Translations under genes and position numbers: made by a program | Origin: Candidatus Omnitrophota bacterium | GTDB lineage: Bacteria; Omnitrophota; Gorgyraeia; 1-14-0-20-64-10 | Length of the DNA stretch: 64,000 bases | Assembly: GCA_016177405.1 (NCBI GenBank) | Contig: JACOVG010000021.1 | Location: 14,434-78,433, forward strand | Direction: 5' to 3' | The notes under the pieces: model-generated | Database searches by the model: none | Seen by the model: the letters and a program-made list of their open reading frames with translations, nothing else | What the model was told of the DNA's origin: nothing | Shown: positions 1 to 34,450 of the stretch, one piece after another | Position numbering within the stretch: position 1 is the first letter of the stretch | Layout of the letters: every line of letters begins with the position of its first letter

Positions 1-780
1 CTTGGTTTCGCCCGGCTTCAAAACAAGCTTCCCCTGCAAAACCCCCACCATGTCCTCCCCGCGGACCTCGTGGCCCCCCAGCTTCTTGGCGGCCAACCCG
101 CCCATCTCCTTGAACGACCCGTAGGGTCCGAAGAAGCTCTCCCGGCGGCACTCGAAGCTCTCGATCGGGAACGAGGCCGAGAAGAAGCCGAAACCGGTCT
201 TGTGCCAATCCTTGAAGGGATGCTTGAAGGCGACGATCGCCTGGGCCGACTTGTCGAAGACCGCCTCGTTGTAGAGGCAGAGGATGTTCCGGTAATGGGT
301 CTCCAGCGCCACATCGCCGCAGACGAGCTCGACAAACGGATAAACCTCGATCTCCCGGCGCTGGCCGGTGGTGTTCTTAAGGGAGGTCAGCCACAGCTCC
401 ACCGGGGCCTCCTTGGCCACGAAGTAAGTGACCGACCCCTTGATCCCGTGGCGGCTGGCGCTGATCTTGGTGTAGCCCAGGCCGTGCCGGCACTCCCAGC
501 CGTCCAGCTTCTCCCTGAAGGGCTGCCAGTTGAGCGACCAGATCCGTTTCTTGGCGGGCTCCTTCAGGAAAAGATAGCGCCCGGGCCGGTCGGAGCTTAA
601 GTGGTCGTAGCGCAGGATCCGGTAATACTTGGGGTCCTTGAAGTAGGAAAAGCCGCCGGCGGTCTGCGAGATCAAACAGTGGTAGACGTCGTTGAACAGG
701 TAATTGAACCACGGCCTGGGCGTGTCGGGCCGGGTGATGATGAACTCTTTGCTGTCTGGGCTAAAATGTCCGAAGCGCAT
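1..780 (-). CDS. Glycoside hydrolase family 94-type glycoside phosphorylase (cellobiose/cellodextrin phosphorylase-like), N-terminal ~260 aa. ATG at 778-780; the gene continues past the window start.
   Basis: Hand translation of the minus strand gives MRFGHFSPDSKEFIITRPDTPRPWFNYLFNDVYHCLISQTAGGFSYFKDPKYYRILRYDHLSSDRPGRYLFLKE...ECRHGLGYTKISASRHG with no stop to position 1. This matches the conserved GH94 N-terminal pattern (HFDD..EYVIT.P.TP.PWINYL...AGG.S...D....RY...GRY.Y...ARHGLGY). The ORF track omits it because it has no stop inside the window. An AAGGAAGG RBS lies just upstream. Confidence 0.7.
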   Translation of the reverse strand, partial: MRFGHFSPDSKEFIITRPDTPRPWFNYLFNDVYHCLISQTAGGFSYFKDPKYYRILRYDHLSSDRPGRYLFLKEPAKKRIWSLNWQPFREKLDGWECRHGLGYTKISASRHGIKGSVTYFVAKEAPVELWLTSLKNTTGQRREIEVYPFVELVCGDVALETHYRNILCLYNEAVFDKSAQAIVAFKHPFKDWHKTGFGFFSASFPIESFECRRESFFGPYGSFKEMGGLAAKKLGGHEVRGEDMVGVLQGKLVLKPGETK

Positions 781-819: not shown

Positions 820-2022
820 TTAAACCGAGGCGAAGACGTCGCGGATCACGAGGCTCGCCGCGCCCAGGGCCACGCAGTCCTCGCCCAGGCGGGCGGGAAC
901 GATCTTCACCGCGTTGGCCATCTCCTCGAAGGCGTAAAGCCTGACCATCTTCTTGATCGCCTCAATCAGCGCCGGGCCGGCGGCCTCGATGCCGCCGCCG
1001 ATCACCACCGCCCCCGGGTTCATGAGGTTGACGAGAAAGGAGATCCGCACCCCCAGCCGCTCGCCGGCCTTCTGAACCATCTCGATGGCGAGCTTGTCGC
1101 CGTCCCGGACGGCTTCGAAGACGGTCTCCAGGGTGATCTTGTCCAGTTTTCCGGAAACCAGCTCCGAGATCCTGGACAGGCCCCCCTTCTGGATCGCCTC
1201 CCGGGCGTCGTCCGGAATTCCCAGGTGGGCCGCCCAGGGCTTCAAGGCGGTGAGGTTGCCGATCCAGACGTCCGAGACGTTCATCGAGTTCTTGATGGAG
1301 ACCTCGCCGGCCGTCCCGCTGATGCCGTGGTAGATCTCGCCGTTGATGATCATGCCGCAGCCGACCCCGGAATACATGAAGAGCATGATGTCCACATCGG
1401 TCCCGGCCCCCAGCGACCATTCGCCGTAGGCGGCGGTGGTGACGTCGTGCTCGAGCTTCACCGGCACCTTGAACTTCTCGGTGAGTAACCCCGCGATCGG
1501 CACGTAGATGGAGGCCACCCCCTCGGTGCAGCGGATCGTGCCGACCTCCCTGTCGATCACGCCGGAGGCGCCGATCTGGATGCCGCGGATCTTCTTGGCC
1601 TCCACCTGGGCGTTCTTGATCACCTCGCTGATGGCGTCGGTCAGGCTCTTCACCACGGAGTCGGCCGAGTCCCGCGGGCGGGGCGCCTTGGAGCGGGCCA
1701 CGACGTTCCCCTCCAGGTCCGCCAGGACCGCCTCGATCGAGAAAACGCCCAGATCCACCCCAACGACATAGGAAGATTTCGGATTCAGAACCACAATGGT
1801 CGGCCGGCGGCCGCCCGAGGAGATGTCCAGGCCCTTCTCGATCACGATCCCCTGCTCGATGAAGTTGTTGACGTAGTTGGAGACGGTCACGATGTTGAGC
1901 TTGGTGAGCTTGGAGATGTCGGTTCGGGAGATGGGCCCGTAACGCTTGATCGCTTCGAGGATGGAGACGTTCTTCCGTTCGCGGTCGGTCAGCGAATGCT
2001 CGTCCAGTTCCGCAGTCTTCAT
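820..2022 (-). CDS. ROK-family transcriptional regulator (NagC/Mlc/XylR-like) with an N-terminal HTH and a ROK sugar-kinase-like domain
   Basis: The 400-aa ORF has an N-terminal wHTH (ILEAIKRYGPISRTDISKLTKLNIVTVSNYVNNFIEQGIV). It is followed by glycine-rich ROK motifs (VGVDLG, IGASGVIDREVGTI, GVGCGMIINGEIYHGISGTAGEVS). The gene sits inside a sugar-utilisation locus. Confidence 0.85.
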   Translation of the reverse strand: MKTAELDEHSLTDRERKNVSILEAIKRYGPISRTDISKLTKLNIVTVSNYVNNFIEQGIVIEKGLDISSGGRRPTIVVLNPKSSYVVGVDLGVFSIEAVLADLEGNVVARSKAPRPRDSADSVVKSLTDAISEVIKNAQVEAKKIRGIQIGASGVIDREVGTIRCTEGVASIYVPIAGLLTEKFKVPVKLEHDVTTAAYGEWSLGAGTDVDIMLFMYSGVGCGMIINGEIYHGISGTAGEVSIKNSMNVSDVWIGNLTALKPWAAHLGIPDDAREAIQKGGLSRISELVSGKLDKITLETVFEAVRDGDKLAIEMVQKAGERLGVRISFLVNLMNPGAVVIGGGIEAAGPALIEAIKKMVRLYAFEEMANAVKIVPARLGEDCVALGAASLVIRDVFASV

Positions 2023-2202: not shown

Positions 2203-3194
2203 TGAGAGATCCCTGTAAGCGGCACTCAAAGTCTTCCAAACCGCTTCAGGATCTTCCGCCTTCAATTTGATGTAGGCCGCGCCGAAATAGCTCCAGGCGG
2301 CGAAGTTCCGGATCCCCTGGGCGTAACCCTCCTCTATCGCTTCCTTAATCTTGCCCTCTTCCCCTTTGGGAATATTGAAGTTCAGAATCCAAAGCTGGGC
2401 CTCCTTGCCGAATTGCCGGCACAGATCCTGGACGCGCCGGGCGAAGGGCCGGACACGCCCGGCCGCGTCCGGGGTGTGGGGCCTCCAGTAGGGGTCGGTC
2501 CCGAAGATCGAAAGCGAGGCTATCGAAGCGACCTTCGCCCAGTCGTTGACCGTCGAGGAGTTCTCGAAGGGAAGCTGGCAGAGCGCCGCCGTGAGCCCGG
2601 CCTTCACCGTGGCGTCGCAGAGGAATCGGGTGAAATCCACGAGGCATTCCTCTTTGAAGGCGCGAACCTCGGGCGTAAGGGTTTCGGGAAGCGCGCCGCC
2701 GTGCCGCTCCTTGAACCGCTGGGCGCAGGCCCCGCAGCGGCAGGCCCACAGGAGCGGATCGCCGGGCCCCTCCTTCTCTTCGGGATAGATCATGAAGTGG
2801 GGCTCGTCCCAGAAAAGGACGTCGGCCTTGATCCGCTGGGCGGCCTCGATCCACCGCAGGAGGTACTCCCGGACGGCCGGCTGGTTGGGGCAAGCGATGG
2901 GAAGGGATTCGCCCCGGGAGCTCACCTGCCGAAGCGAAAGCTCCCTGGCGATCAGGCTGGAGTAGGTTTCCCCGCCGAAAAGCTGGCCCACCCCCCAGGG
3001 GTCCAGCCAGACCTGAAGCCCCAGGGCGCGCGAGTCCTCCACGATCCGAGCCAGCGCCCCCTCGTAGAACTCCAGGTCCTCCTCGCTCATCGTGTGGACC
3101 ACGTAGGTGCAGCCGGCCTTCCGGATCTCTTCCAGATCCTCCTGGACCCGCCAGGGAATCCGGTTCCCGTAGTAGCTGACGCCGAGCGCGGTCA
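2188..3194 (-). CDS. TIM-barrel protein, putative glycoside hydrolase-like (clan GH-A-like?). The likely start is a TTG overlapping the stop of the symporter gene.
   Basis: Only the C-terminal ~335 aa of the 851-aa track ORF reads like protein (LTALGVSYYGNRIPWRVQEDLEEIRKAGCTYVVHTMSEEDLEFYEGALARIVEDSRALGLQVWLDPWG...FWDEPH...). The upstream part is an out-of-frame shadow of the SSS gene. In ctggaTTGAcc the TTG and the TGA overlap, suggesting translational coupling. Confidence 0.5.
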
Positions 3195-4991
3195 ATCCAG
3201 AGGGACGGGATCTTCCTGCTCGGACCAGTCGAGGTAGCCCACCGCCTTCAGCAGGATCGCGGCGGAGACCACCATCACGACGCCCGCGATGATCGCCTCT
3301 TTGAAGAGGCCGATGAAGGCCCACTGCAGACCCATCATGGCCGCGTAGACGGTGGCGATGCCGGAGAGCCAGCAGATGACGTTGCTTACCCGAAACTGCT
3401 GGGCGGTCAGCCCCGGCCAGCGGACATGGGCTTCCTTGGCGATGGGACCCCACCACCCCGGCGGCCGGGCCCGCCGGTAGAAGTTCAGCAGGACCTCCTT
3501 GTCCACCGGCTTGGTGAGGAAGGTCACCACGAGCCAGATGACGGTGCACAGGATGATCGTCAGGACCACCTGAATCGAGTACCATTCGCCGGTCTGGATC
3601 TTGGGCACGAGGAGAAGGGCGTTGGAGATCACGAAGCTCGCCACCAGCGACCAAAGCTCGGACTTGGCGGAGACGCGCCACCAGTACCACCGCAGCAAGG
3701 GCACCAGCACCCCGCCGGCCATCATCGCCGAGAGGAACAGCCACGCCCGGTAGACCGAGTTGAGCCGCCAGGCGCCGTAGGCCCCCATCAAGACCACAAC
3801 CACCGACATGATCTTGGAGACCACCACGTAGTGGCTCTCGGAGCCGCGGCGCACCACAAACCGCTTGTAGAGGTCGTTGACCAGGTACGAGGCGCCCCAG
3901 TTGATGTGGGTGGCCACGGTGGACATGAAGGCCGCCAGCATCGCCGCCACCATCAGCCCCCGGAATCCCACGGGCAGGAACATCACCATCATCTTGGGGT
4001 AGGCCATCTCCGGGTCGGCCAGGTTGGGCAGGTAAATGAGGCTGGCCAGGCCGACGAGCACCCAGGGGACGGCCCGGATGGCGTAATTCCAGATGTTGTA
4101 CCAGAGCAGAGCCCCGACGGCGTGCCGGCCGTTCTTGCAGGAGAAGAGGCGCTGGGCCAGGAAACCGCTGCCGTCGGCCCCGCCCCACCAGTTGATGAAG
4201 ATGAAGACCAAAAAGGTGAAGACCGCCAGGTCCGAGCCGGCAAAATTCGGAACAAACTTGATGATCTGGTCGGGGTCGGCCACCGGGGAGCCCAGCGTCG
4301 GGTCGGCGTGCAGAACCCGGGCCGCCTCCACCGCCTTCTGGGCCAGGGCGGCGGGGCCCCCGACATCCGCCACCACGATCCAGGCCAGCATGACCACGCC
4401 GATCATCGCCACGATGAACTGCATCAGATCGGTGTAAGCCACCCCCCACATCCCGGAGAGGGTCGTGTAGAACAGAGTCAGCGTGACCAGGATGACGATG
4501 GCGGTGAGCTTGGGCCATCCGAAGACCTCGGTGCAGATCTTCTGCATCCCGAGGAACACCCACGCCAGGGTGATGGTGTTGGCGATGACCGAGCGGAAGC
4601 AGGCGTGGAACATGCGAAGGCCCGCCGCGGTTTTCCCGCCGTAGCGCAGCTCCACGAGCTCCACGTCGGTCAGGATCTTGGAGCGCTGCCAGAGCTGGGC
4701 GAAGAAGAAGGCGGCCATCGTGGTGCCGATCAAGCCGCTCCACCAGTACCAGTTCCCCTGGAAACCCTGGGTGCGGACGATGCGGGCGATGGCCAGCGGG
4801 GTGTCGGCCGCGAAGGAGGTGGCCACCATCGAGGTGCCGGCCAGGAACCAGCCGAGTTTCCTGCCGGCTACGAAATATTCGCTAAGATTTTGAGAGGCGC
4901 GCTTGGTGAAGAGGAGGCCGATCCACAGGGAGGCGACGCCGTAGACGGCGATGACCGCCCAGTCCAGCGGGGCGAGGGCTATGCCGTCCAA
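3192..4991 (-). CDS. Sodium:solute symporter family (SSS) transporter
   Basis: The 599-aa ORF has about 13-14 predicted TM helices and SSS-like motifs (YFVAGRKLGWFLAGTSMVATSFAADTPL, GGPAAL). It sits between the ABC permease and the hydrolase-like gene. Confidence 0.8.
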   Translation of the reverse strand: MDGIALAPLDWAVIAVYGVASLWIGLLFTKRASQNLSEYFVAGRKLGWFLAGTSMVATSFAADTPLAIARIVRTQGFQGNWYWWSGLIGTTMAAFFFAQLWQRSKILTDVELVELRYGGKTAAGLRMFHACFRSVIANTITLAWVFLGMQKICTEVFGWPKLTAIVILVTLTLFYTTLSGMWGVAYTDLMQFIVAMIGVVMLAWIVVADVGGPAALAQKAVEAARVLHADPTLGSPVADPDQIIKFVPNFAGSDLAVFTFLVFIFINWWGGADGSGFLAQRLFSCKNGRHAVGALLWYNIWNYAIRAVPWVLVGLASLIYLPNLADPEMAYPKMMVMFLPVGFRGLMVAAMLAAFMSTVATHINWGASYLVNDLYKRFVVRRGSESHYVVVSKIMSVVVVLMGAYGAWRLNSVYRAWLFLSAMMAGGVLVPLLRWYWWRVSAKSELWSLVASFVISNALLLVPKIQTGEWYSIQVVLTIILCTVIWLVVTFLTKPVDKEVLLNFYRRARPPGWWGPIAKEAHVRWPGLTAQQFRVSNVICWLSGIATVYAAMMGLQWAFIGLFKEAIIAGVVMVVSAAILLKAVGYLDWSEQEDPVPLD

Positions 4992-5027
4992 CGGCGGGAA
5001 ACCCCGGCGGGGAGCATGGGGGGTATC

Positions 5028-6320
5028 TTAACCGACCGTTGAGCCGCGTGTCAATCCCTCGATGATGTACCGCTGAAAGCAGAGAAAGACGATGATCACC
5101 GGCAGAGCGGTGATGGCCGACCCGGCCATCAGGTGGACCCAATCGACCCCGGTGATCGACTTGTAGAGGGCCAGGCCCACCGGCAGGGTGCGCATCTCGA
5201 CCGTGTTGGTCAGCAGGAAGGGATAGAGGAAGGTGTTCCAGGCCCCCATGAAGGTGTTGATCCCGACCACCGCCAGCGCCGGAGAGGACAGGGGCAGCAC
5301 CACCCGGGTGAAGATGGCGAACTCCGAGGCGCCGTCGATCCGGGCCGCCTCCTCCACCGCCGGCGGCAGCTTGGAGATGTACTGCCGCATGAGGAAGATG
5401 TTGAAGGGGGTGACGAGGTTCGGAACGATCAGCGCCCAGTAGGAGTTGAGCCACCCGATGTGCTTCATCAGGATGAAGACCGGCACCATCAAAACCTGCG
5501 GCGGGATGGCGATGGAGCCCACGACCATGAAGAACATCGCTCGCTTGAAGGGAAAATCGCGGCGGGCGAAGGCGTAGCCCACCATGGCCGAGAAGAGAAG
5601 GTTGCCCAGGGTCACCAGCAGGGCGATCGCCGTCGAGTTGGCCGCGTAGCGGCCGAAGGGGCCGCTCACCAGAACGTCCCAGTAGTTGTTCCAGGTCCAG
5701 CGGCGGAACTCCAAGCGGACGTCGTCCAGGTGAAGGGTGCCGGCCCCCTCGGGAAAGGAGAGCGCGAGCGCTTCGGCCTGCCGCTCACGCAGCCCCGGGG
5801 AGAGGGCCTGCAGGAAAAGGGACTCCATCGGGACCCTGACCGTTTCCCATCGGGTGGTCAACCCGCCCCGAAGGAACTGCTGGAGGTCGACGCTTGCCCG
5901 GCGGCCCTTCAGGTCCGCCATCTCCACCATGAAGGTCTCGCCCCCTTTGTCGCCGCGAACCCGAAACGACAAGTGGGAGAATTTCCGCAGGTCCTGGGCG
6001 ATCCGGGTGGACCACCGGGCCGGCCCCTCCCCCTTGAGATACCGGATTGTCAGGAAGCGGTTCTGCTGGGGGGCGGGTTCCGGGGGCGTGAAGAGCATCT
6101 CCACCTTGGAGTCCGCGCCGGTTTCCACGCCGATGGGTCCGCCGATCGAATTCAAGGCGCCAACCTCGAAGTCGGCCACCAGGACCTCGCGGGAGCGCTT
6201 AAACAGGGTGCCGGTGGGCTTGAAGGAGGCGTGGAACATGAGGGCCAGCGGCGCCAGCGTCGCCGCGAGCATGACGGTCAGCACCGCCACCGCGAAGGCC
6301 GTCACCAGCCGCTCGCGCAT
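5028..6320 (-). CDS. ABC sugar transporter permease (MalG/UgpE type) with a ~170-aa CBM-like domain inserted in the first periplasmic loop
   Basis: The C-terminal part carries the EAA-loop permease signature (AARIDGASEFAIFTRVVLPLSSPALA) and six TM helices. Between TM1 and TM2 lies a module (VADFEVGALN...LSFRVRGDKGGETFMVEMADLKG...TRWETVRVPMESLF...GTLHLDDVRLE) that is paralogous to the domain in five secreted proteins at 29.5-34.4 kb. The likely start is the ATG at 6318-6320, overlapping the TGA of the upstream gene (TGATG). Confidence 0.8.
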   Translation of the reverse strand: MRERLVTAFAVAVLTVMLAATLAPLALMFHASFKPTGTLFKRSREVLVADFEVGALNSIGGPIGVETGADSKVEMLFTPPEPAPQQNRFLTIRYLKGEGPARWSTRIAQDLRKFSHLSFRVRGDKGGETFMVEMADLKGRRASVDLQQFLRGGLTTRWETVRVPMESLFLQALSPGLRERQAEALALSFPEGAGTLHLDDVRLEFRRWTWNNYWDVLVSGPFGRYAANSTAIALLVTLGNLLFSAMVGYAFARRDFPFKRAMFFMVVGSIAIPPQVLMVPVFILMKHIGWLNSYWALIVPNLVTPFNIFLMRQYISKLPPAVEEAARIDGASEFAIFTRVVLPLSSPALAVVGINTFMGAWNTFLYPFLLTNTVEMRTLPVGLALYKSITGVDWVHLMAGSAITALPVIIVFLCFQRYIIEGLTRGSTVG

Positions 6321-8605
6321 CAGACCCGATCCTCCATCTTGAAGAGACGCATCTGGACCCACGAGAAGCTCATCGTGATGAAGAAAAGGAGGTACCCGAC
6401 CGCCGCGGCCCGCCCCATCTCAAACCGGTGGAACCCGGTCTCGTAGAGGTACCAGACCACCGTGGTGGTGGAGCCCAGGGGCCCGCCCTGCGTCATCGCG
6501 AAGATCTCCGGGAAGACCTGAAAGGCGTGGATGGTGTTGACCACCGTCGCCACCAGAAGAATCGGCTTCAGCTGCGGCAGGGTGATGTGCCTGAACTTCT
6601 GCCACTCGTTGGCCCCGTCGATGGCCGCCGCCTCGTAGAGCTCCGAGGGGATCGTTTGCAGGCCCGCCAAGAACAGCACCATGTAATAGCCGAAGCTCGC
6701 CCAGACGTTCATCATCATGATGGAAAGCAGGGCCAGCCGGGTGTTGAGGAGCCAGTTCGGCGTGGGCGGCGGCAGACTCAGCGCCCGCAGCCCCAGGTTC
6801 ACCAGGCCGCCGGGGGAATAGAGGTAGGTGAAGATGGTGGCGATCACGATGACCGAGGTGGCCACCGGCAGGAAGAGGCCCGCCTGGTAGAGGCCCTTCA
6901 GGGGAACCTTGGTGTTGATCAGAACCGCCGCGAAAAGGGCCAGCGCCATGGTGGGCGGGATGGTCCCCGCCGCGAAGAAAAACGTGTTCGCCAGGGCCCG
7001 GAGGAACTCGGGGCTGCGCCCGATCTCCAGGAAGTTCCTCAAGCCCACAAAGGTGAATTCGGAGCTCAACAGGTTGTAGCGGGCAAAGCTCAAGACGAGC
7101 GAATGCACGAGCGGCGTCAGGCTGAAGACCAGAAAGATGGCCAGCCAGGGCGACAGAAAAATCAGGCTCACCGCCAAATCCCGGGGCGAGCGGGAAACCC
7201 TCGCCGCGATCCCCCGCCCCCGCCGCCTGGCCAACAGCCAGAGGAACATTCCGGCCAGGCCCGCGGCCGCCAGCAGGCCGAACACCACCGCGTCGCTCAC
7301 CCCCGTCTTCACCTCGGGGCTGGCCAGGATTTCGTTGATGGCGGCGGCGGCCTCGGCCAGGGCCGCGCTGGGGCGGCGGTCCTTCAAGACGACCTCCTCC
7401 ACCGCGCGGGTGATCCACTCCTGCATCTCCACCCACCGGGGATGGGCCGGGGGGGCCACCGCGAACCGGACCTGGTCAAAAAAGAGCTTCTGCTCCGGGT
7501 GGGTCTTGTAATAAGGATGGTTGAGGGCCGACTTGGCGGTGGGGACGATGTTGCGCTGGGCCTCCACAATGGCCATCGCCTGCTCCTCTTCCATCAAGAA
7601 GAGGGCCAACTTGAGGGCCGCCTCCGGGTGCTTGGCGCTTTTTAAGACGGACAGGATCTCCCCGCCGGCAAAGGAGGCCGGCGTTCCCCGGAGGGCCGCC
7701 GGCCGGGGGCACAGGCCCACGCCGAAATTGAGCGTGGGATTCATCTGGGGAATCAGGGAGAAGTTCCAGGAACCGGAAATTTGGATGCCCACCCGGCCCT
7801 GGGCGAAGAGCTGGTTCACCTGGGTCTGACGCTCCACCAGCGCGTAGGGCTTGAGCATCCGGTAGAACTCCAGGGCCTCCACCACCGGCGGCTGGTCCAG
7901 CAGACAGCGCTTCCACCGCGAATCCAACACCTCGCCGCCGTTGCCCCAGGCGAAGGAAAGGAACTCCTGCCAGGGGGCGTACGGCTCCGCCACGTGGATG
8001 CCGATCCCGTAAACGTCCGGCCCCAGGGCGTCAACGGCGCTGGCGGCCTGGAGAAGCTCTTCCCAGGTGGCCGGGGGACGGTCCGGGTCAAGCCCCGCCC
8101 GGCCGAAGAGATCCCGGTTGTAAAAAAGGATGCGGGTCCCGGCCAGCCACGGCAAGCCGTAGATCCGCTCCTTGAAGGCGGCCGGCTCCCAGAGGAAATA
8201 CCGGTCCCGGATGTCCCGTGAGGCCTCGGTCAGATCGGTCAGGACGCCGGAGGAGGCGAACTGCGGCACCCAGTCGGTCCCCAGCTCGCACAGGTCCGGG
8301 GCGTTGCCGGCGGCGATCGAGGTGATGATCTTGTCCAGGCCGTAGTCCCAGGCCAGCTGTTGAAACCGCACCCGGATGCCAGGATTCTGGCGCTCGAACT
8401 TGGCCAGGAGGCCGCGCATCAGCTCCTCGCCCACCGAAAGCTCCCAGAAATCAATGGTGACTTCGGAGGCGAAGGCGGGTGCGGGCTTAAGGGCGAGGGG
8501 TGAAAGGAGAAGGAGCGTCATGGCGAGCCCGCCAAAGAATTTCGGCGGGCGAAGCAATCTCTCGATCACGGGGCTAAGTCTACCGCCGGAGGAATAGATT
8601 GACAA
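6320..8605 (-). CDS. Fused extracellular solute-binding protein (family 1, MalE-like) plus ABC permease (MalF/UgpA type)
   Basis: The 761-aa ORF is a single continuous frame. The N-terminal ~430 aa look like a periplasmic sugar-binding protein with the shared LAMT leader. The C-terminal ~300 aa form a six-TM permease with an EAA loop (AAAIDGANEWQKFRHITLPQLKPIL). The track start is a TTG at 8605; a GTG at 8567-8569 would give MIERLLRPPKFFGGLAMT, which is more plausible. Confidence 0.75.
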   Translation of the reverse strand: MSIYSSGGRLSPVIERLLRPPKFFGGLAMTLLLLSPLALKPAPAFASEVTIDFWELSVGEELMRGLLAKFERQNPGIRVRFQQLAWDYGLDKIITSIAAGNAPDLCELGTDWVPQFASSGVLTDLTEASRDIRDRYFLWEPAAFKERIYGLPWLAGTRILFYNRDLFGRAGLDPDRPPATWEELLQAASAVDALGPDVYGIGIHVAEPYAPWQEFLSFAWGNGGEVLDSRWKRCLLDQPPVVEALEFYRMLKPYALVERQTQVNQLFAQGRVGIQISGSWNFSLIPQMNPTLNFGVGLCPRPAALRGTPASFAGGEILSVLKSAKHPEAALKLALFLMEEEQAMAIVEAQRNIVPTAKSALNHPYYKTHPEQKLFFDQVRFAVAPPAHPRWVEMQEWITRAVEEVVLKDRRPSAALAEAAAAINEILASPEVKTGVSDAVVFGLLAAAGLAGMFLWLLARRRGRGIAARVSRSPRDLAVSLIFLSPWLAIFLVFSLTPLVHSLVLSFARYNLLSSEFTFVGLRNFLEIGRSPEFLRALANTFFFAAGTIPPTMALALFAAVLINTKVPLKGLYQAGLFLPVATSVIVIATIFTYLYSPGGLVNLGLRALSLPPPTPNWLLNTRLALLSIMMMNVWASFGYYMVLFLAGLQTIPSELYEAAAIDGANEWQKFRHITLPQLKPILLVATVVNTIHAFQVFPEIFAMTQGGPLGSTTTVVWYLYETGFHRFEMGRAAAVGYLLFFITMSFSWVQMRLFKMEDRV
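8517..8564 (-). repeat. Leader cassette copy (variant cgtcatggcgag...cgaagcaatctctc) encoding the signal peptide of the SBP-permease fusion
   Basis: cgtcatggcgag-cccgccaaagaatttcggcggg-cgaagcaatctctc; the core is the inverted repeat cccgcc/ggcggg. Confidence 0.7.
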
Positions 8606-8645
8606 GCCTCTCCTCTTAAACGGATAATTAAATTCCTAACCTAAG

Positions 8646-9299
8646 ATGAAACCTAAGCTTCTGATCGCTTGCGATTTCGACGGAACGCTCACCCGGCAGG
8701 ACACCCTGGTGACGATCCTGGATTCCTTCGGCTCCCCTTCCTGGAGGGAAGTCCAGCAAAAGGTCGTTTCCGGTGAAATCCCGATCCGGGAGGGGCTCGC
8801 GGCGGAGATGGCCTCTGTCCGGGCCAACCGCGAGCAGTTGATCGAGCTTTTGACCCAGCAGGTTGGCGTGGATCCGGCTTTTTCCGGCTTCCTTCATCTG
8901 ACGCGGCGGGAGGGGGTGCCCCTGGTCTGCCTGACCGGCGGCTTCGACCTGTGCGTGGAGACGGTTCTCAAAAAGGAGGGGCTCTGGCCTCTGCCTTATC
9001 TTGCCAACCGGCTCCTGAAGGATAACGGCTCCTGGCATGTGGAGTTTCCGTACCCCTCGGCCACCTGCGCCGCCTGCGGCCACTGCAAGGCCGATCCGAT
9101 CCGCGGCTGGAACGAGCAGGGCTACACCACCGTCTTTGTGGGCAACGGGGTAACCGACCGCTGCCCGGCCCGGGTGGCCAACCTCACCTTCGCCAAGGAG
9201 GAGCTGGGCCAGTGGTGCCAAAGCCAGGGTCTGCCCTGGGTGCCTTACGAGAATTTCTCTGACGTCGAGCAGGAATTAAGGAGGAGGGAATGGATATAA
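8646..9299 (+). CDS. HAD-superfamily subfamily IB phosphatase, MtnX-like (2-hydroxy-3-keto-5-methylthiopentenyl-1-phosphate phosphatase family)
   Basis: Begins with the DFDGTLT HAD motif I, has the C-x-x-C-G-H-C-K Cys motif typical of MtnX-like proteins, and ends with the GNGVTD motif. Confidence 0.6.
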   Translation: MKPKLLIACDFDGTLTRQDTLVTILDSFGSPSWREVQQKVVSGEIPIREGLAAEMASVRANREQLIELLTQQVGVDPAFSGFLHLTRREGVPLVCLTGGFDLCVETVLKKEGLWPLPYLANRLLKDNGSWHVEFPYPSATCAACGHCKADPIRGWNEQGYTTVFVGNGVTDRCPARVANLTFAKEELGQWCQSQGLPWVPYENFSDVEQELRRREWI

Positions 9300-9973
9300 A
9301 AACGAGATTGCTTCGGGCCCTTGGGGCCCTCGCAATGACGACCACTTTTCTTTCGCCCCTCACCCTTGACCCTTCATCCGCTTACGCCTCGGTCAAGCAG
9401 GAGGTGTACGTCAGCGGGACGGTGGAGTCCTTCGGCGGCTACACCTTCACCGAGTCGCTCACCTTCACCGTGGACAAGCCCGGCTCCCGGGAGATCGGCG
9501 CCATCACCATGGAAGGCGTCTACAACGGGGAATACCCCTGGATCCTTCGGGCCTACACCGACAACTTCCACTACACCGGAATCGGGGGCGCCAGCCGCCC
9601 GGCGAGCGCCGCGGGGCTCGTGTCCAAGGACGGCCGCTTCGCGATCCCACTGGAGGTTCACTCTCCCCTGTACGACGAGGGGATCTGGCGCCGGGTCCCG
9701 GATCTAAGCGATCCGGATCCCATCCCCTACCAACCCGAGCCGGATCTGCGGCCGACGGTCTACACCGACTGCGTTCTGATGGGGATAGACCCCCGGAACG
9801 GCGCCTGGGTGGCGGGCCCGGACGGGGTGCTCTTCACCGCCGACGACTCGCTGCTGGGCGACTTCACCGCCAAGACCCCCTGCGAGATCCTGGTCCGGGC
9901 CAACGCCGACGCCGCCGCGGCCGCCGGCGAATATGAAACCTTCCTTTATCTCGAGATCGTCCCCGCCCCGTGA
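9290..9973 (+). CDS. Secreted protein of unknown function with the shared LAMT leader; paralog of 10881..11912
   Basis: The signal peptide is MDIKTRLLRALGALAMTTTFLSPLT. The block AAGLVSKDGRFAIPLEV is shared with 10881..11912 (AGLVSADGRFAIPLKL). The G.Y..F/L.LE-V/I C-terminus resembles a beta-strand terminus of pilin or spore-coat-U-like subunits. Confidence 0.6.
   Translation: MDIKTRLLRALGALAMTTTFLSPLTLDPSSAYASVKQEVYVSGTVESFGGYTFTESLTFTVDKPGSREIGAITMEGVYNGEYPWILRAYTDNFHYTGIGGASRPASAAGLVSKDGRFAIPLEVHSPLYDEGIWRRVPDLSDPDPIPYQPEPDLRPTVYTDCVLMGIDPRNGAWVAGPDGVLFTADDSLLGDFTAKTPCEILVRANADAAAAAGEYETFLYLEIVPAP
9304..9340 (+). repeat. Leader cassette copy (gagattgcttcg-gggcccttggggccc-tcgcaatgacg)
   Basis: Identical over ~38 nt to the reverse complement of 29509..29546. 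Confidence 0.8.
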
Positions 9974-10884
9974 AAAACCGGTGGTCATCGCGAGGCCCGG
10001 AGGGCCGTGGCGATCTCGCTTTAAAAACGGGATTGCTTCGTCCGCCAAAAATCATTGGCGGACTCGCAATGACGTTTTTATTTCTCACGACTGCCTTGGC
10101 GGTGGAGGTCAGCCCCACCCGGCTCGAGCAGGCCATCTCCGCCGACCAGCCGACCCTGGGGACCTTGGAAATCTCCAATCCCTCCTCCCGGGCGGCCCGC
10201 GTCCAGATCCAAACCGGGCCCTACCGCTACCTCGAGCCCAAGTTCAGGCTCCCCTCGGCCGAAGATTGGTTTCAATTCGAGCCGGCCGCCTTCAGCCTGG
10301 CCCCCGGAGCGTCGCTTACGGTTTCGTACACGATCACCCCGGCGGCCAACGTCCGGGACGACGCGGCCGCCGAGTACCTGGCCGCAATCCTGGTGGACCA
10401 GCTGCCGGAAGAGCCCAACGTCATTGCGAGGAGCAACAGCGACGAAGCAATCTCGCAAGCCTCGCCACAGAACGTTGGCGGGCAAGCCAAGGTCACCTTC
10501 GTGCCCCGCTTCGCCGTGCCGGTTTACCTCACCCTTCCGGAACGGGAGAAAAAGGAGCTGGAGCTTGCGGGGCTCACCGTCCGGGTCGGAGAATCGCCGG
10601 ACCTCTTGAGGTTCGGCGTCGCGCTTAAAAACACCGGCACGGTTCACCTTCGGCCAGCGGGCTCTTTGGTGATCCTCTCCGAGGCGGGGACAGCCGTCGA
10701 ATCCAGAACCCTGGGCAGATCCCTCCCCATCCTTCCGGGCGCCACCCTGGAGCTCCCGGCCCTGGTTCCCATGCCCGGGAGCGCGGGCCGGTACCGGGCC
10801 GCCGTCACGGTCCAAGCCGACGAAGCTCTCCTTCTGCAAAAAGAGATCGGCTTCGAGGTGACGCCCGAGGGGGCCGTGAAGTGA
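9970..10884 (+). CDS. Secreted two-domain beta-sandwich protein, PapD/pilus-chaperone-like fold candidate
   Basis: Has the LAMT leader, followed by two ~110-aa repeats with the chaperone-like pattern (VEVSPTRLE...TLEISNPSS.RAARVQI...FEPAAFSLAPGASLTVSYTI, and a second copy VTFVPRFAVPVYLTLPE...). The GTG start overlaps the stop of 9290..9973 (GTGA). Confidence 0.45.
   Translation: MKNRWSSRGPEGRGDLALKTGLLRPPKIIGGLAMTFLFLTTALAVEVSPTRLEQAISADQPTLGTLEISNPSSRAARVQIQTGPYRYLEPKFRLPSAEDWFQFEPAAFSLAPGASLTVSYTITPAANVRDDAAAEYLAAILVDQLPEEPNVIARSNSDEAISQASPQNVGGQAKVTFVPRFAVPVYLTLPEREKKELELAGLTVRVGESPDLLRFGVALKNTGTVHLRPAGSLVILSEAGTAVESRTLGRSLPILPGATLELPALVPMPGSAGRYRAAVTVQADEALLLQKEIGFEVTPEGAVK
10030..10074 (+). 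repeat. Leader cassette copy (gattgcttcg-tccgccaaaaatcattggcgga-ctcgcaatgacg, followed by tttttatttctc)
   Basis: Core inverted repeat tccgcca/tggcgga. About 60 nt are nearly identical to 10893..10950. Confidence 0.8.
10419..10455 (-). repeat. Inverted-orientation leader cassette copy embedded in-frame in CDS 9970..10884
   Basis: cgtcattgcgag-gagcaacagcgac-gaagcaatctcg is the reverse complement of the leader consensus. It is translated as NVIARSNSDEAISQA in the inter-domain linker. Confidence 0.7.
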
Positions 10885-11912
10885 AAAAAATGAGATTGCT
10901 TCGTTCGCCAAAGTTCATTGGCGGACTCGCAATGACGTTTTTATTTCTCCCCCCGGCTTTCGCCCAGAAGGCCCTGCGGATCGGGTCGGTCTCTTACGAT
11001 CAGCACGTCCACTCCACCGAGCTGATTAAGTTCACCGTGGCCGTCAAGAACAATGAGGCGACCACCCAGTTTGCCGAGGTGGACATCACCTTGACCAACG
11101 TGGAGACCGAGCAGGAGCTCACCCTGGTGCCCGTGCTCACCGGGAATGTCCTGGCCGGCCAGGAGTCTGTCCTGGTCACCACTTACCAGAACATCCCTGA
11201 CGGCACCTACACAGTCAGCTTTCCCCTTTTTGACGGCGACGGTGTCCGGGTGGACCGGGTCACCGGGTCCACCCCCATCCACATCGGCACCGAAACCGAA
11301 ACCCTGCAGGTCTTTCCGGAGGTGATTCATTTGGGAACCCTGCCGCCGGGCCGCGCGATGTTCCCGACGCCCATCGAGGTGCGCTGGGCTTTCTACCGGT
11401 TCAACCGTTTAAGACTCGATCAGCCCTTCTACATCCGGATTTACTCCGACAACGCCGCCCGCTACCGCGGCGTCCGGGGCGCCCTGCGGCGCAACTCGCC
11501 GGCCGGCCTGGTCTCCGCGGATGGGCGCTTTGCCATTCCGCTGAAGCTCTGGAACCTGAACTACGGCCCGGACATGCAGGAGGGGGGCTGGGACGCCGCC
11601 CTGGCCGGGCCGCCGCCTGTGGACGACGACGCCTTCTGGATCGGCCCGGAGCTTCTGGAGGGGGGCCGCAACCTCGGCTCGGCCAACTGGGTGAGGATCC
11701 CGGATCTTTCGGAGATGACCTCGGACCCGGTGAGCTGGCGGCGGCTGATCGGCCAGGACCCGTTCGACAACCGGTATGTCTCCGACTCCAATCAAACCGG
11801 AGACTTCACCCTAAAGAGCCCCTTCACCCTTTATCTGGCCGCCGAGGCGGGACCCACCGCCGTGGAAGGGGCCTACACCGCCAACCTCGTGGTGGAGCTG
11901 TGGGACCCGTAG
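10881..11912 (+). CDS. Secreted protein of unknown function with the LAMT leader; paralog of 9290..9973
   Basis: The signal peptide is MKKMRLLRSPKFIGGLAMTFLFLPPAFA. It shares the blocks named above and the C-terminal pattern GAYTANLVVELWDP. Confidence 0.6.
   Translation: MKKMRLLRSPKFIGGLAMTFLFLPPAFAQKALRIGSVSYDQHVHSTELIKFTVAVKNNEATTQFAEVDITLTNVETEQELTLVPVLTGNVLAGQESVLVTTYQNIPDGTYTVSFPLFDGDGVRVDRVTGSTPIHIGTETETLQVFPEVIHLGTLPPGRAMFPTPIEVRWAFYRFNRLRLDQPFYIRIYSDNAARYRGVRGALRRNSPAGLVSADGRFAIPLKLWNLNYGPDMQEGGWDAALAGPPPVDDDAFWIGPELLEGGRNLGSANWVRIPDLSEMTSDPVSWRRLIGQDPFDNRYVSDSNQTGDFTLKSPFTLYLAAEAGPTAVEGAYTANLVVELWDP
10893..10938 (+). repeat. Leader cassette copy (gagattgcttcg-ttcgccaaagttcattggcgga-ctcgcaatgacg, followed by tttttatttctc)
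   Basis: Read directly from the sequence. Confidence 0.8.
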
Positions 11913-13906
11913 GCGTCATGGCGAGGCGCAGCCGAAGCCATCTCGTTTTTGGATTGCTTGGGGCCCTTGCAATGACGGCGGGTCTGCTCACGACCGCTTC
12001 TGCGCAGGAGATCACGAGTCAGGAAACCCTTTCCCTGGGACGGGCCGACCAGCTTCTCCGCCAGAAGGCGTTCGATCAGGCCATGGAAGAGCTGGGGCGC
12101 CTGCCCAAGGAGTTCCACGAGGATCCGCTCTTCCGAGGCCATCTGGGCCGGGCCGCGGGCGCCCTTTACCGGACCGCCCGGAGAAGAACCTACCGGGAGG
12201 GGCTGGCCCCTTTTCGCGGGCGGGCGGCGGCCAGCGTCCGGGTGACCCACCGTAAGCAGGACTCCGGCCGGAATTCCGACCAGACCTCGGACAACCGCGG
12301 CTGGCAGATCAACGAGCGGCTGGAGACCACGTTGGGGCGGGAGGGCAGGATTAACGCCCGTTTTCTCCAGGAGGCGGACGGTTTCAAGAACGGCCACCGG
12401 GATCTTCGCTACCGCACGCTCCTGGTCGATTTCTTCAACGGTTCCTCCCACCTGGCCCTGGGAGATTCCGCCAGCTATGGCAGCCCCTACTTCCTGCGGG
12501 GCTCCCGGCTCCGGGGGGCCGACCTCCTTTTGCGCGGCGAAACCCACGAGCTTCAGTTGGTGGCCGGCGGCTACCCCTTCTGGCTGGAGTCCCGGGACGA
12601 GTACATTTATCCTCGGACCGTCTGGGGCTTCCGGGACAAATGGAATCTGATGGGAGAGCGCGTGAGCCTGGGGGCCGGCCTCATGCAGGCCAGAGATTCC
12701 GAGAAGATCCGGACGATCGACACGGCCAACCGCCCCCGGGACAATGTCGTCTACTCCCTGGAGCAGGCCGTGAGACTCGTCCCCGACGTCTGGTGGCTCA
12801 AGGCCTACGAGGCCTACAGCGTCACCGACGACGACCTCCTTGAGGAGCGCTTCGGAAACGCCCGGAAGCTCAAGGACACCGCCTTCCGGCTGGAGTCGGA
12901 CCTGATCCAGCCCTTTTTGAGATGGAGAAGCCGCTACGAACGGACCGGCCCTGAATTCCGGCTCCTCACCGATATCCCCTCCGGCTCGGTGGTGAACGCC
13001 AAAGGGATCACGGCCGACCGGGAATTCATTCAGCAATATCTGGATCTCGCCCCGCTGGGTCCGCTGGACCTGGACCTGGAGGCGAGCTGGTACCGCAACA
13101 GCCTGGACGGGCGGGACAACGTGGAGCAGACCCGCCAGCGGTGGGCCACGGTGGAGGCCGGCTTCCTGGTGCCCGAGGGCTGGCCCAAACCCAGGGTCCG
13201 CGGCACCGCCACCGAAACCCTCTCAAGCCCCGGTTCCGCCACCCGGGCCTCGCAAACCAGAACCTTTGATGTAAGAACCGATCTCACCCATCGCCTGGGG
13301 GACTGGTCCCTAAACGGCTTCGGCACCTTCAAGGCGGAGCACCCCCTCAAGGACAAAACCGCCTTTGACGAGCAAACCTCCTGGTCGGCCGGCTCCCAGA
13401 TTTCGCGCCCGCTGGGAAAACGCCTCTACTGGACGAGCCGCTACGAATTCCGTTTCTTCGATGAGGTCTTCGATGAGACGCGGATCCGGGACCACAGCGA
13501 CGAGATCAACAACAACCTCTCGGTCCGCCTCTGGAGCACCGCCTCGCTGGGGCTTCACCACAGCTTTCTCCGGGGAATGCTTCGGGGAACCGCCAGCGCC
13601 AAGAAGATCGAGGCCAACCGCCACACCGGAAGCGCCTCCCTCTCCTGGCCGTACGTCTGGACCAGGGCGGACAAGCGCCGCCGGCTGACCATTCACCCTT
13701 CGCTCGCCTACTACGTCAGCAACGTCACCAACAGCCTGGAAAGGCGGCCCATGGCCAGCGGCGGGCTCCGGCTGGCCTACGAGGCCTACCCGGACTGGAA
13801 GCTGGAGTTAAACGGCAATTTCCGCTGGGACGATGACGGCGAGGCCGACGAGGTCCGCACCGAGGAATCCCGCGTCTGGCTTTCCTTCACCACCCTCTGG
13901 CCGTAA
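11900..13906 (+). CDS. Large secreted protein, candidate outer-membrane beta-barrel (usher/porin-like)
   Basis: Has the LAMT leader (MARRSRSHLVFGLLGALAMTAGLLTTASA). The 668-aa sequence is rich in alternating aromatic/polar strands and Arg/Tyr/Trp, and the C-terminus (SRVWLSFTTLWP) is barrel-like. The true start may be the internal ATG near 11918. Confidence 0.45.
   Translation: MGPVGVMARRSRSHLVFGLLGALAMTAGLLTTASAQEITSQETLSLGRADQLLRQKAFDQAMEELGRLPKEFHEDPLFRGHLGRAAGALYRTARRRTYREGLAPFRGRAAASVRVTHRKQDSGRNSDQTSDNRGWQINERLETTLGREGRINARFLQEADGFKNGHRDLRYRTLLVDFFNGSSHLALGDSASYGSPYFLRGSRLRGADLLLRGETHELQLVAGGYPFWLESRDEYIYPRTVWGFRDKWNLMGERVSLGAGLMQARDSEKIRTIDTANRPRDNVVYSLEQAVRLVPDVWWLKAYEAYSVTDDDLLEERFGNARKLKDTAFRLESDLIQPFLRWRSRYERTGPEFRLLTDIPSGSVVNAKGITADREFIQQYLDLAPLGPLDLDLEASWYRNSLDGRDNVEQTRQRWATVEAGFLVPEGWPKPRVRGTATETLSSPGSATRASQTRTFDVRTDLTHRLGDWSLNGFGTFKAEHPLKDKTAFDEQTSWSAGSQISRPLGKRLYWTSRYEFRFFDEVFDETRIRDHSDEINNNLSVRLWSTASLGLHHSFLRGMLRGTASAKKIEANRHTGSASLSWPYVWTRADKRRRLTIHPSLAYYVSNVTNSLERRPMASGGLRLAYEAYPDWKLELNGNFRWDDDGEADEVRTEESRVWLSFTTLWP
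11913..11975 (+). repeat. Composite of an inverted leader-cassette copy (cgtcatggcgag-gcgcagc-cgaagccatctcg) immediately followed by a direct copy (ggattgcttggggcccttgcaatgacg)
   Basis: Read from the sequence. The inverted half begins at the stop codon of 10881..11912, and the direct half encodes the FGLLGALAMT of the next gene. Confidence 0.65.
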
Positions 13907-24048: not shown

Positions 24049-24816
24049 TTACGCCAGAACGAGGACGTGCGGTTCGGCCGGGTATTCCCGCGTCAGCTTG
24101 GCGGAGGCCGGCTTGTCCACGATGATCGTCGCCTTGGGATGCAGCTGAACGATCGTGGCCGGCACAATCGCCGTGATCGGTCCCTCGCAGGTGTTGGCGA
24201 TCGCCTCGGCCTTGCCCGCGCCGTTGGCCAGCAGGATGAGCTGGCGGGCGTCCATGATCGTGCCGATTCCCATCGTGATGGCGTACCTGGGAACCTCGTT
24301 CATGTTGCGGAAGAAGCGGGCGTTGTCCTGCCGGGTCCGGTCGTCCAGGGTCTTGACGCGGGTCCGGGAGCCCAGCGACGAGCCCGGCTCGTTGAAGGCG
24401 ATGTGCCCGTTGCCGCCGATCCCCAGAAGCTGGAGGTCCAGGCCCCCGGCCCGGATGATGTCCTCTTCGTACTTGCGGCAGAATTCCGGGATGTCCTTCG
24501 CGGTGCCGTCGGGGATATGGACGTTCTTGGCGTTCACGTTCAGGTGCTTGAAGAGGTTCTCCCACATGAAGAAATGGTAGCTCTGGGGATGCTCGTGGAC
24601 CAAGCCCACGTACTCATCCAGGTTGAAGGTGGTCACCTTGGAGAAATCCAGACCATCCTCTTTGTGCAGGCGGATGAGCTCCTTGTAGGTCCCCAGGGGG
24701 GTCGAGCCGGTGGCCAGCCCCAAAACGGCCCGGGGCTTGCGGCGGATCAAATCGGCGATCAGCTCCGCCGACAGGCGGGATACCTCGTCGTACGATTCCT
24801 TGACAATGACTTCCAT
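24049..24816 (-). CDS. nagB: Glucosamine-6-phosphate deaminase
   Basis: The 255-aa ORF has canonical NagB blocks (LGLATGSTPLGTYKELI, FNLDEYVGL, IGGNGHIAFNEPGSSL, ITMGIGTIMDARQ). Confidence 0.9.
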   Translation of the reverse strand: MEVIVKESYDEVSRLSAELIADLIRRKPRAVLGLATGSTPLGTYKELIRLHKEDGLDFSKVTTFNLDEYVGLVHEHPQSYHFFMWENLFKHLNVNAKNVHIPDGTAKDIPEFCRKYEEDIIRAGGLDLQLLGIGGNGHIAFNEPGSSLGSRTRVKTLDDRTRQDNARFFRNMNEVPRYAITMGIGTIMDARQLILLANGAGKAEAIANTCEGPITAIVPATIVQLHPKATIIVDKPASAKLTREYPAEPHVLVLA

Positions 24817-30266: not shown

Positions 30267-30275
30267 TTTGTCCTC

Positions 30276-30899
30276 CTACTCCAGCTTAAGATCATCCAGG
30301 TAAACCGTCCCCCTGCCCACACCGCCGGGGAAAAGGGTGCCTTCGAAGCAGATGGCGACGGAGGCCGTCTGCTTGTGATCCAGGAAGAAGGCCTCCACGG
30401 GAATGACGGCCTTCTGCCATTCCGCGGTGACCTTCCCGGCCGGCAGGTACTTCCCGATCGGTTCGGACTTCACGGAGTCCCCCACCTCGTCCCAATGGCG
30501 GTCGGCCATTCCCACCAGGAAGTTCTCATCGCCGGCGGCCCCCCTCACCCAAAAGGTGAGGCTCCGGTAGCCGGAGGCGTCGAAGTAGCGGCTGCCGCTC
30601 TTCAGCAGGGTATACCAGCCGCACCAGCCCCCGGAATCGTAAGGGCCGCCCCGCCCCTTCTTGTCGTACTTCAACATCAGGGAACCGGAGCCTTGATGGG
30701 CCGGGTCCTTCACCAAAAGGGCCAGCGACCGTGAGGGCTCTTTCAGGTAGGTGCTGGCGCGCCCGCCCAGCTTATTGACCGAAGCCCCCTCGAAGTCGTC
30801 AATCAACAGGGGCTCCGCCGCGAAAGCGGCGGTAAGCGGTAAGCAGTAAGCAGTAAGCAAAACAGCGGTCATCGCGAGCAATCTCTTTCTCATTCCCAT
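30276..30899 (-). CDS. Secreted single-domain protein carrying the recurrent CBM-like module; close paralog of 29553..30266
   Basis: PLLIDDFEGASVNKLGGRAS..., GGWCGWYTLL, LTFWVRGAAGDENFLVGMADRHWDEVGDSVKSEPIGKYLPAGKVTAEWQKAVIPV, GTVYLDDLKLE. Confidence 0.65.
   Translation of the reverse strand: MGMRKRLLAMTAVLLTAYCLPLTAAFAAEPLLIDDFEGASVNKLGGRASTYLKEPSRSLALLVKDPAHQGSGSLMLKYDKKGRGGPYDSGGWCGWYTLLKSGSRYFDASGYRSLTFWVRGAAGDENFLVGMADRHWDEVGDSVKSEPIGKYLPAGKVTAEWQKAVIPVEAFFLDHKQTASVAICFEGTLFPGGVGRGTVYLDDLKLE
30831..30858. repeat. Heptanucleotide tandem repeat (ggtaagc x2, agtaagc x2) in the signal-peptide codons of 30276..30899
   Basis: ggtaagcggtaagcagtaagcagtaagc, encoding LTAYCLPLT on the coding strand. 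Confidence 0.75.
30868..30886 (-). repeat. Truncated leader cassette copy (gtcatcgcgagcaatctc)
   Basis: Read from the sequence; it lacks the central hairpin. Confidence 0.5.
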
Positions 30900-34419: not shown

Positions 34420-34450
34420 CTTACCACAACCTCGACGCCGCCCTTTTCCG

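Follow-up and report, generated by a model that had tools for sequence, protein, structure and literature searches.

A solute-binding domain fused to a MalF-type permease in Omnitrophota, the probable receptor-plus-channel subunit of a CUT1-type sugar importer

The classical chimeras of a substrate-binding domain (SBD) and a transmembrane domain (TMD) among transporters of the ATP-binding cassette (ABC) class are reportedly OpuA (OpuABC) and GlnPQ of Lactococcus lactis, which van der Heide and Poolman are said to have described in 2002. For sugar importers of the CUT1 family, orphan ATPases that are shared between systems, such as MsiK and MsmX, are the rule in many cases. In Vibrio, the chb locus combines an ABC transporter with a GH94 chitobiose phosphorylase and an N-acetylglucosamine (GlcNAc)-1-phosphate mutase. 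Covalent SBD-TMD chimeras have become textbook knowledge for OpuA and GlnPQ (PMC11065425, PMC8025302), and an account of the chb operon is available (PMC5519180). A closer parallel is the maltose transporter of Bdellovibrio bacteriovorus, in which, according to a passage of PMC6906923 that cites Licht et al. 2019, a single MalE domain is fused to MalF; part of PMC7756565 states that MalE fused to MalF is competent for transport, and the original article (Res Microbiol 170:1) is found in the reference list of PMC9045158. Two unfused systems also bear on the comparison. These are the DasABC and NgcEFG chitobiose importers of Streptomyces, which a passage of PMC6167110 describes as CUT1 systems sharing the orphan ATPase MsiK, and the maltose transporter of Escherichia coli, in which a section of PMC6906923 has MalG loop P1 and MalF loop P2 touching the N-lobe of MalE. 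Here, we analyze a stretch of 64,000 nucleotides from a Candidatus Omnitrophota bacterium (contig JACOVG010000021.1, referred to below as the window), in which a single open reading frame (ORF) encodes a solute-binding protein (SBP) domain followed by a MalF-type permease. The best explanation of the locus as a whole is that the product of this fusion gene probably combines receptor and channel in one subunit of an ABC sugar importer of the CUT1 type (type I).

Fusion gene, junction and spread of the family

The fusion gene encodes 761 amino acids from its first TTG start. Pfam places both halves in one frame of this translation, with SBP_bac_1 at residues 63 to 343 (E 1.3e-44; SBP_bac_8 matched as well) and BPD_transp_1 at residues 554 to 750 (E 6.3e-16). 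Binding domain and permease form one uninterrupted polypeptide, an SBD-TMD chimera, as an earlier note made from the sequence of this DNA had stated. The TGATG overlap reported in that note can also be read in the sequence: the stop codon TGA (6322..6320) has one base in common with the ATG (6320..6318) of the next gene, as in ...cgg gtc TGA TGc gcg..., and Pfam identifies the product of that gene as a MalG-type BPD_transp_1 protein. The top NCBIfam matches were UgpA, GlcT, and MalF for the fusion permease and UgpE/MalG for its partner, all of them below the cut-offs. The binding domain matched the PDB sequence 5ci5 at 8.6e-50, and 3uor and 5ysb too; its AlphaFold2 (AF2) model has a predicted local distance difference test score (pLDDT) that is mostly above 90, and Foldseek aligned it with oligosaccharide SBPs at TM-scores of 0.80 to 0.87 (normalized to the target). 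In keeping with a CUT1 system, the receptor has the SBP_bac_1 (cluster D) fold, and there are two distinct permeases, one MalF-type and one MalG-type, each of which carries an EAA loop (EAAAIDGA in the fusion; 5328..5351 in the partner).

The start of the fusion is ambiguous (8521..8605, minus strand), and the three candidates are listed in Table 1. All three give a signal-peptide-like leader that ends in AFA↓SE, and the leader that follows from the NCBI call lacks a basic n-region. In the longest version, the predicted signal peptide consists of a basic n-region (RLLRPPK), a hydrophobic core (FFGGLAMTLLLLSPLAL), and a signal peptidase I site at AFA↓SE; no lipobox cysteine was seen when the leader sequence was read. 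A short basic and hydrophobic leader stands at the N terminus of all homologues.

The window derives from a metagenome-assembled genome (MAG), and in studied bacteria the genes for CUT1 SBPs and permeases are usually separate, two circumstances that would suit an assembly or sequencing artefact in which two genes have been joined through the loss of a stop codon or through a frameshift. However, three Logan assemblies of separate runs (SRR12113428, SRR12113425, and SRR12113390) match the window with 100% identity over 2240..9331, and the two of them that span the entire fusion ORF contain no internal stop. The GC content at third codon positions (GC3) is 0.82 to 0.98 in each 50-codon interval from codon 51 to the end and is continuous over the junction (codons 400 to 480), and one alternative frame on the fusion strand holds 30 stops. 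Neither a frameshift near 7.3 kb nor a stop between the two parts, the defects that the earlier note had wanted checked, is present in these independent assemblies. Fused homologues are found over several phyla, and the junction contains a transmembrane helix and a basic loop that an accidental read-through would not supply. Given the identical assemblies, the continuity of GC3, and the conservation, an artefact was rejected, and we regard its probability as negligible. The fusion is a genuine, conserved gene.

The binding protein does not run straight into a six-helix permease, as had been proposed from the sequence at first; a linker helix (TM0) and a basic loop intervene, and the modeled protein is one of seven transmembrane helices, the extra TM0 plus a six-helix core. 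TM0 (VVFGLLAAAGLAGMFLWLL) directly follows the binding domain and has a hydropathy of 2.31. A helix at this place is found in all 71 aligned fusions (mean Kyte-Doolittle value of 2.5, minimum of 1.63), its sequence being unconserved, and it is followed in 71 of 71 by a basic loop with a mean of 6.1 K/R versus 0.8 D/E; the loop in the window, ARRRGRGIAARVSRSPRD, has 7 K/R and 1 D/E. Three unfused relatives with lipoprotein-type leaders (P0109, P0113, and P0115) end exactly where the linker starts. The AF2 model of the fusion, for which the 71-sequence alignment was the input, has a pLDDT of 89.4 and a predicted template-modeling score (pTM) of 0.85. In this model the binding domain extends over residues ~49 to 428, TM0 has the limits given in Table 1, and the core helices span residues 474 to 506, 532 to 564, 570 to 595, 625 to 650, 667 to 696, and 730 to 754, with the EAA helices between the fourth and the fifth. 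Since the EAA loop must be cytoplasmic for contact with the ATPase and the binding domain must lie outside, TM0 reconciles the two requirements; with the modeled core helices, the EAA loop comes to lie on the cytoplasmic side only if TM0 exists. A binding domain outside and an EAA loop inside are what the leader, TM0, the basic loop, and the six core helices together predict, so that the topology check suggested in the earlier note, that the SBP be periplasmic, comes out in its favor by hydropathy, basic loop, and AF2.

The fused family comprises more than 170 full-length homologues with 28 to 81% identity. More than 100 of them, full-length and 693 to 779 amino acids long, with both Pfam domains and 37 to 100% identity, came from a homology search, the named ones being nearly all from Candidatus Omnitrophica/Omnitrophota MAGs, with Rifleibacterium in addition; the matches P0001 and P0121, from an Omnitrophota MAG, are 100% identical. 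In an exhaustive HMMER search of representatives of 50%-identity clusters, 70 of the best 150 were fused, down to 28% identity. Species-representative genomes of GTDB contained 256 stretches encoding relatives of the fusion, and among the best 80 of these 256 both halves were covered except where a contig end cuts. Record titles assign the relatives to Omnitrophota, Auribacterota, Riflebacteria/Ozemobacter, Eisenbacteria, Latescibacterota, Zixibacteria, SAR324, and Ignavibacteria, to which the cluster names add Planctomycetota, Chlamydiota, and one Thermoplasmatota archaeon. Fusions of this kind had been called uncommon, which is true for studied organisms only; the family as sampled here is large. 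In a rough neighbor-joining tree of the SBD domains, which included fragments and was sampled with a bias towards fusions, fused and unfused proteins were interleaved, with at least 12 changes of state. Permeases tethered to a large sugar-binding protein are not peculiar to Bdellovibrio but are widespread across many uncultured phyla.

Two further features were observed in other members of the family. The tblastn match to the fusion extends over ~900 codons (2.7 to 2.8 kb) in L042, L046, L049, L055, L056, L063, L070, L075, and L086, loci of Eisenbacteria, Latescibacterota, and some Riflebacteria; this length suggests an additional insert or domain in these fused proteins. In loci of the Riflebacteria type, a protein of 730 to 758 amino acids without a Pfam domain invariably stands before the fusion (7779..9971 in L004 and 3888..6164 in L005).

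Partner permease, energy supply and proposed mechanism

The partner permease has an enlarged loop P1 of 206 residues. Its AF2 model (pLDDT of 84.9) shows a beta-sandwich at residues ~45 to 205 (pLDDT of ~90 there and over residues 60 to 210), for which Foldseek found the carbohydrate-binding module (CBM) structures 1v0a of CBM11 (E 2.3e-8, TM-score of 0.66 normalized to the target) and 2c24 and 1wmx of CBM30 (E ~1e-6); the membrane part matched MalG and SugB. The modeled insert thus has a beta-sandwich fold that resembles CBM11/CBM30. Many homologues of the partner permease have no Pfam match to CBM30. The enlarged permease is conserved throughout Omnitrophota (375 to 463 amino acids); Riflebacteria-type loci have none, and there an ordinary MalG of 271 amino acids comes after the fusion; the beta-sandwich is likewise missing from the fused systems of other phyla. 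Paralogues of the insert occur in the window itself, as CBM30-like ORFs at 29.5 to 34.3 kb (27 to 37% identity, E down to 1e-13). In that region (29553..34641, minus strand), four consecutive ORFs of 237, 207, 411, and 852 amino acids contain CBM30/CBM11/CBM9-like domains. A literature search for ABC permeases bearing a CBM found nothing relevant, and the Omnitrophota partner permease with a CBM11/CBM30-like P1 domain appears to be undescribed.

P1 is a loop that in E. coli touches the binding protein, and an insert at this place could serve either to dock the tethered receptor or to keep a glycan chain close to the entry of the transporter. It may in this way reveal how permease loops recruit receptors or glycans. 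A more speculative idea, to which we give little credence, is that the tethered SBD and the CBM-like domain of the permease act together at the inner membrane of Omnitrophota as a self-contained "catch and feed" device. If this were true, the module borne by the permease would hold a glycan chain or oligosaccharide and pass it to the tethered receptor, which would be a hitherto undescribed mode of ABC import with a CBM built into the translocator. Ultra-small cells scavenging fragments of cell walls or chitin might have such a device as an adaptation.

The earlier note had found no ATPase subunit in the locus, and a motif search for ORFs with both Walker A and LSGGQ likewise found none in the 64-kb window. 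Among 86 related loci, searched up to 10 kb on each side, none has a MalK-type ATPase beside the fusion; this search returned ABC-F-type genes in Riflebacteria and one unrelated-looking ABC ATPase 5 kb off in L079. The absence of a MalK-type gene from all 86 loci, together with the presence of a ROK regulator gene in the operon, would be in line with an SBD-permease pair whose main role is that of a sensor or signal transducer, or which functions in some other way without ATP-driven transport. We consider this very improbable. Both permeases of the window keep the EAA coupling loop, whose D-G-A core is invariant in both family alignments along with many other core positions, the operon carries catabolic enzymes for an imported disaccharide, and shared orphan ATPases are the rule in many CUT1 systems. 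With the EAA loops kept and no local ATPase present, a shared ATPase of the MsiK/MsmX type encoded elsewhere in the genome is a natural and reasonable reading for the importer.

The importer could then work as follows. A Sec signal peptide would export the N-terminal oligosaccharide-binding domain to the periplasm and would presumably be cleaved off. A tether of ~10 residues and TM0 would return the chain to the cytoplasm, the arginine-rich loop fixing the orientation, so that the six-helix MalF-type core would lie N-in/C-in with its EAA coupling loop in the cytoplasm. The fusion would pair with the translationally coupled MalG-type permease to give one tethered binding domain per transporter, two copies of an MsiK/MsmX-like ATPase from elsewhere would supply the energy, and the CBM11/30-like beta-sandwich in MalG P1 may take the docking or glycan-holding part suggested above. 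If so, this is a natural 1:1 receptor-translocator complex, suited to structural and single-molecule work on the docking and release of CUT1 receptors.

Gene neighborhood and probable substrate

The transporter genes belong to an operon-like string on the minus strand (Table 1). In relatives from Omnitrophota, a divergent HAD phosphatase comes first, then the fusion, MalG-CBM, NagA or a sodium:solute symporter (SSF), a conserved protein of unknown family, ROK, GH94, and phosphomutase; NagB and a protein with DUF4954 are found at a distance of a few genes. The GH94 and ROK genes had been described as upstream of the transporter; both are present, the ROK protein being NagC-like, but they lie on the same strand and hence downstream in transcription, with the SSF and conserved unknown genes separating the ROK gene from the MalG-like gene.

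Table 1. Positions of the features of the transporter locus in the window
Feature	Position	Strand	Basis or remark
Fusion gene with signal peptide, binding domain (SBP_bac_1), linker transmembrane helix, MalF-type permease of six transmembrane helices	6320..8605	-	ORF listing and translation
Candidate start, TTG	8605	-	761 amino acids; AGGAG 5 nt upstream; start picked in Logan gene calls
Candidate start, TTG	8557	-	745 amino acids; length typical for the fused family
Candidate start, ATG	8521	-	733 amino acids; NCBI call, P0001
Predicted signal peptide, residues 1 to 46	8468..8605	-	Read from sequence
Predicted periplasmic substrate-binding domain, residues 47 to 430, CUT1 oligosaccharide-binding-protein fold	7316..8467	-	Pfam, PDB sequence search, AF2, Foldseek
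Predicted linker transmembrane helix TM0, residues 438 to 462, outside to inside	7220..7294	-	Hydropathy, family alignment, AF2
Predicted basic cytoplasmic loop between TM0 and permease TM1	7178..7231	-	Sequence
MalF/UgpA-type permease core, six transmembrane helices, EAA loop at 6611..6634	6323..7177	-	Pfam BPD_transp_1, NCBIfam, AF2
MalG-type partner permease, 430 amino acids, beta-sandwich of ~175 amino acids in periplasmic loop P1	5028..6320	-	Pfam, AF2, Foldseek
Predicted CBM11/CBM30-like beta-sandwich insert, residues 36 to 210 of the partner permease	5691..6215	-	Pfam, AF2, Foldseek
Sodium:solute symporter (SSF), same operon-like string	3192..4991	-	Pfam SSF, 6.8e-42
Conserved protein of unknown family, ~335 to 337 amino acids	2188..3201	-	Found in 16 related loci; accompanies the transporter in Omnitrophota
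ROK-family protein with N-terminal winged helix, NagC/Mlc-like regulator	820..2022	-	Pfam ROK and HTH_24
GH94 disaccharide phosphorylase, N-terminal 257 amino acids, cut by window start	1..780	-	58% identity to GH94 of relative L001
NagB, glucosamine-6-phosphate deaminase	24049..24816	-	NCBIfam
HAD-IB phosphatase, divergent	8646..9299	+	Conserved neighbor, 19 related loci

A GH94 gene stands in the operon here and is found in 12 related loci. The ROK protein has NagC as its top NCBIfam match (180 bits, below the cut-off). NagB scores above the cut-offs of two models (NF001684, 354 bits versus 326; TIGR00502, 326 versus 237) and is a conserved neighbor of the transporter locus in Omnitrophota, in 13 related loci. 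Eight relatives have NagA inside the operon; in L001 it scores 339 on TIGR00221 (cut-off of 226), and the mutase that follows GH94 there scores 514 on an archaeal-type GlmM model (cut-off of 439). NagB in the window, together with NagA and the GlmM-type mutase in relatives, favors a GlcNAc-containing disaccharide that is degraded by phosphorolysis. The substrate would then be a beta-linked disaccharide or short oligosaccharide, with N,N'-diacetylchitobiose as the best guess, and the catabolic route may proceed through the GH94 phosphorylase, the GlmM-type mutase, NagA, and NagB under the control of the NagC-like ROK regulator. On this gene content, a chitobiose-type substrate has slightly better than even chances.

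A number of observations weigh against the importer as proposed or against its substrate. No ATPase partner was found for the fusion within the window, topology and signal-peptide cleavage are predictions from hydropathy, the positive-inside rule, and AF2, and the Pfam match of the permease insert to CBM30 is marginal (28.4 bits versus a cut-off of 27). The closest solved SBPs bind assorted sugars and have 21 to 30% identity to the binding domain. CBM11 and CBM30 are binders of beta-glucan, the operon in the window has SSF in the place of NagA, and the GH94 enzyme of a relative scores 525 bits against the cellobiose phosphorylase of Clostridium thermocellum versus 456 against the chitobiose phosphorylase of Vibrio (for the full-length protein, 2.5e-156 with PDB 3qde and 2.2e-135 with 1v7v). 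The last three of these points would fit an importer of the same architecture whose substrate is cellobiose or cello- or mixed-linkage beta-gluco-oligosaccharides, the amino-sugar genes nearby serving another pathway; the resemblance of the neighboring CBM30/CBM11/CBM9-like proteins to beta-glucan binders and the presence of cellodextrin and beta-glycoside SBPs (CbpB 7x0m, 7c6*) among the Foldseek matches point the same way. This alternative is rather unlikely, though it deserves to be taken seriously. It is opposed by NagA within the operon of relatives and the GlmM-type mutase after GH94, both above their cut-offs, and by the conserved NagB and the NagC-like ROK protein. Moreover, the cellobiose phosphorylase of Cellvibrio gilvus, at 435 to 439 bits (446 in entry 3rrs), scores below the chitobiose phosphorylase, so that overall similarity of GH94 does not discriminate between the two activities. 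Neither the overall similarity of the SBD nor that of GH94 is decisive for the substrate. The hedged proposal of the earlier note, a cellobiose/beta-glucan or a chitobiose substrate, stands, and the amino-sugar genes tilt it to chitobiose. Under the chitobiose reading, with cellobiose as the other candidate, the locus predicts a phosphorolytic disaccharide pathway in Omnitrophota.

The conserved protein of ~335 amino acids between transporter and ROK had no Pfam, NCBIfam, or PDB sequence match, and it may be an uncharacterized enzyme of the pathway. An SSF gene within the ABC/GH94 operon was seen in 5 of 83 loci, and most relatives have NagA at that place. Adjoining the HAD phosphatase at 9290..13906 (plus strand) are four consecutive ORFs (227, 304, 343, and 668 amino acids) for which Pfam, NCBIfam, and the PDB sequences gave no usable match; the corresponding place in L001 is taken up by a comparable block of unassigned genes, in which CARDB and PKD match faintly. 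An ORF of 2,687 amino acids at 13911..21974 (minus strand) contains ARMT1-like damage-control phosphatase, DUF4922, and NAGPA (phosphodiester glycosidase) domains, and a PKD-repeat protein takes its place in L001. Three giant ORFs that lie back to back on the minus strand (34451..40948, 40941..53957, and 54084..63893; 2,165, 4,338, and 3,269 amino acids, ~29 kb) had no Pfam match at an E value of 1e-5.

Comparison with described importers

The Vibrio chb system and the Omnitrophota locus both join an ABC importer to a GH94 phosphorylase and a phosphomutase, with NagA/NagB chemistry downstream. In Vibrio, however, the transporter belongs to the Dpp/Opp type, has a separate periplasmic CBP, and is neither CUT1 nor fused. 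The Streptomyces DasABC/NgcEFG-MsiK systems, as far as the cited passage describes them, resemble the present one in having an SBP_bac_1 receptor, a MalF/MalG-type pair, no ATPase in the operon, a chitobiose-type substrate, and a ROK/NagC-type or similar regulator nearby. They differ in that the receptor is a separate lipoprotein, the permease has no CBM, and catabolism is hydrolytic or linked to the phosphotransferase system rather than proceeding through a GH94 phosphorylase. In the E. coli maltose transporter, periplasmic permease loops, the Ig-like P2 of MalF and P1 of MalG, contact the N-lobe of the binding protein according to the section of PMC6906923 cited above, and the CBM-like domain described here occupies the second of these loops. 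In E. coli, MalF is the subunit with the large domain, which is not CBM-like, whereas in Omnitrophota the enlarged loop is P1 of MalG and has a predicted CBM11/CBM30-like fold.

Among fused systems, OpuA and GlnPQ have in common with the Omnitrophota protein a substrate-binding domain that is covalently tethered to the translocator, and GlnP has its SBDs at the N terminus, where a signal sequence directs their export. They belong to the osmoprotectant and polar-amino-acid families and have small cluster-F SBDs, whereas the fusion carries a large cluster-D sugar SBP. Their TMDs are homodimeric, with two or four SBDs per complex, in contrast to the single SBD per heterodimer expected here, and the SBD of OpuA is C-terminal, unlike the SBP of the fusion, which is N-terminal and joined through an extra helix.

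The closest match is the MalE-MalF/MalG/MalK2 transporter of Bdellovibrio. To judge from the passages cited for it, this too is a type I importer of the CUT1 family with the binding domain fused to the MalF-type subunit, and its heterodimeric permease likewise entails a 1:1 ratio of receptor to transporter. It handles maltodextrin, whereas the Omnitrophota locus is linked through GH94 and Nag genes to a beta-disaccharide, and it differs from the Omnitrophota system in that here the partner MalG carries a CBM-like P1 domain and the ATPase is not encoded in the locus. With this precedent the fusion principle was already known, a CUT1 fusion having been characterized in Bdellovibrio MalE-MalF according to the same part of PMC6906923. 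Since the basic principle is known, our finding extends existing knowledge and does not change it. What is new in comparison with the described systems is how large and phylogenetically broad the fused family is, that it is linked to a GH94/Nag locus, and that in Omnitrophota the partner permease has a CBM-like domain.

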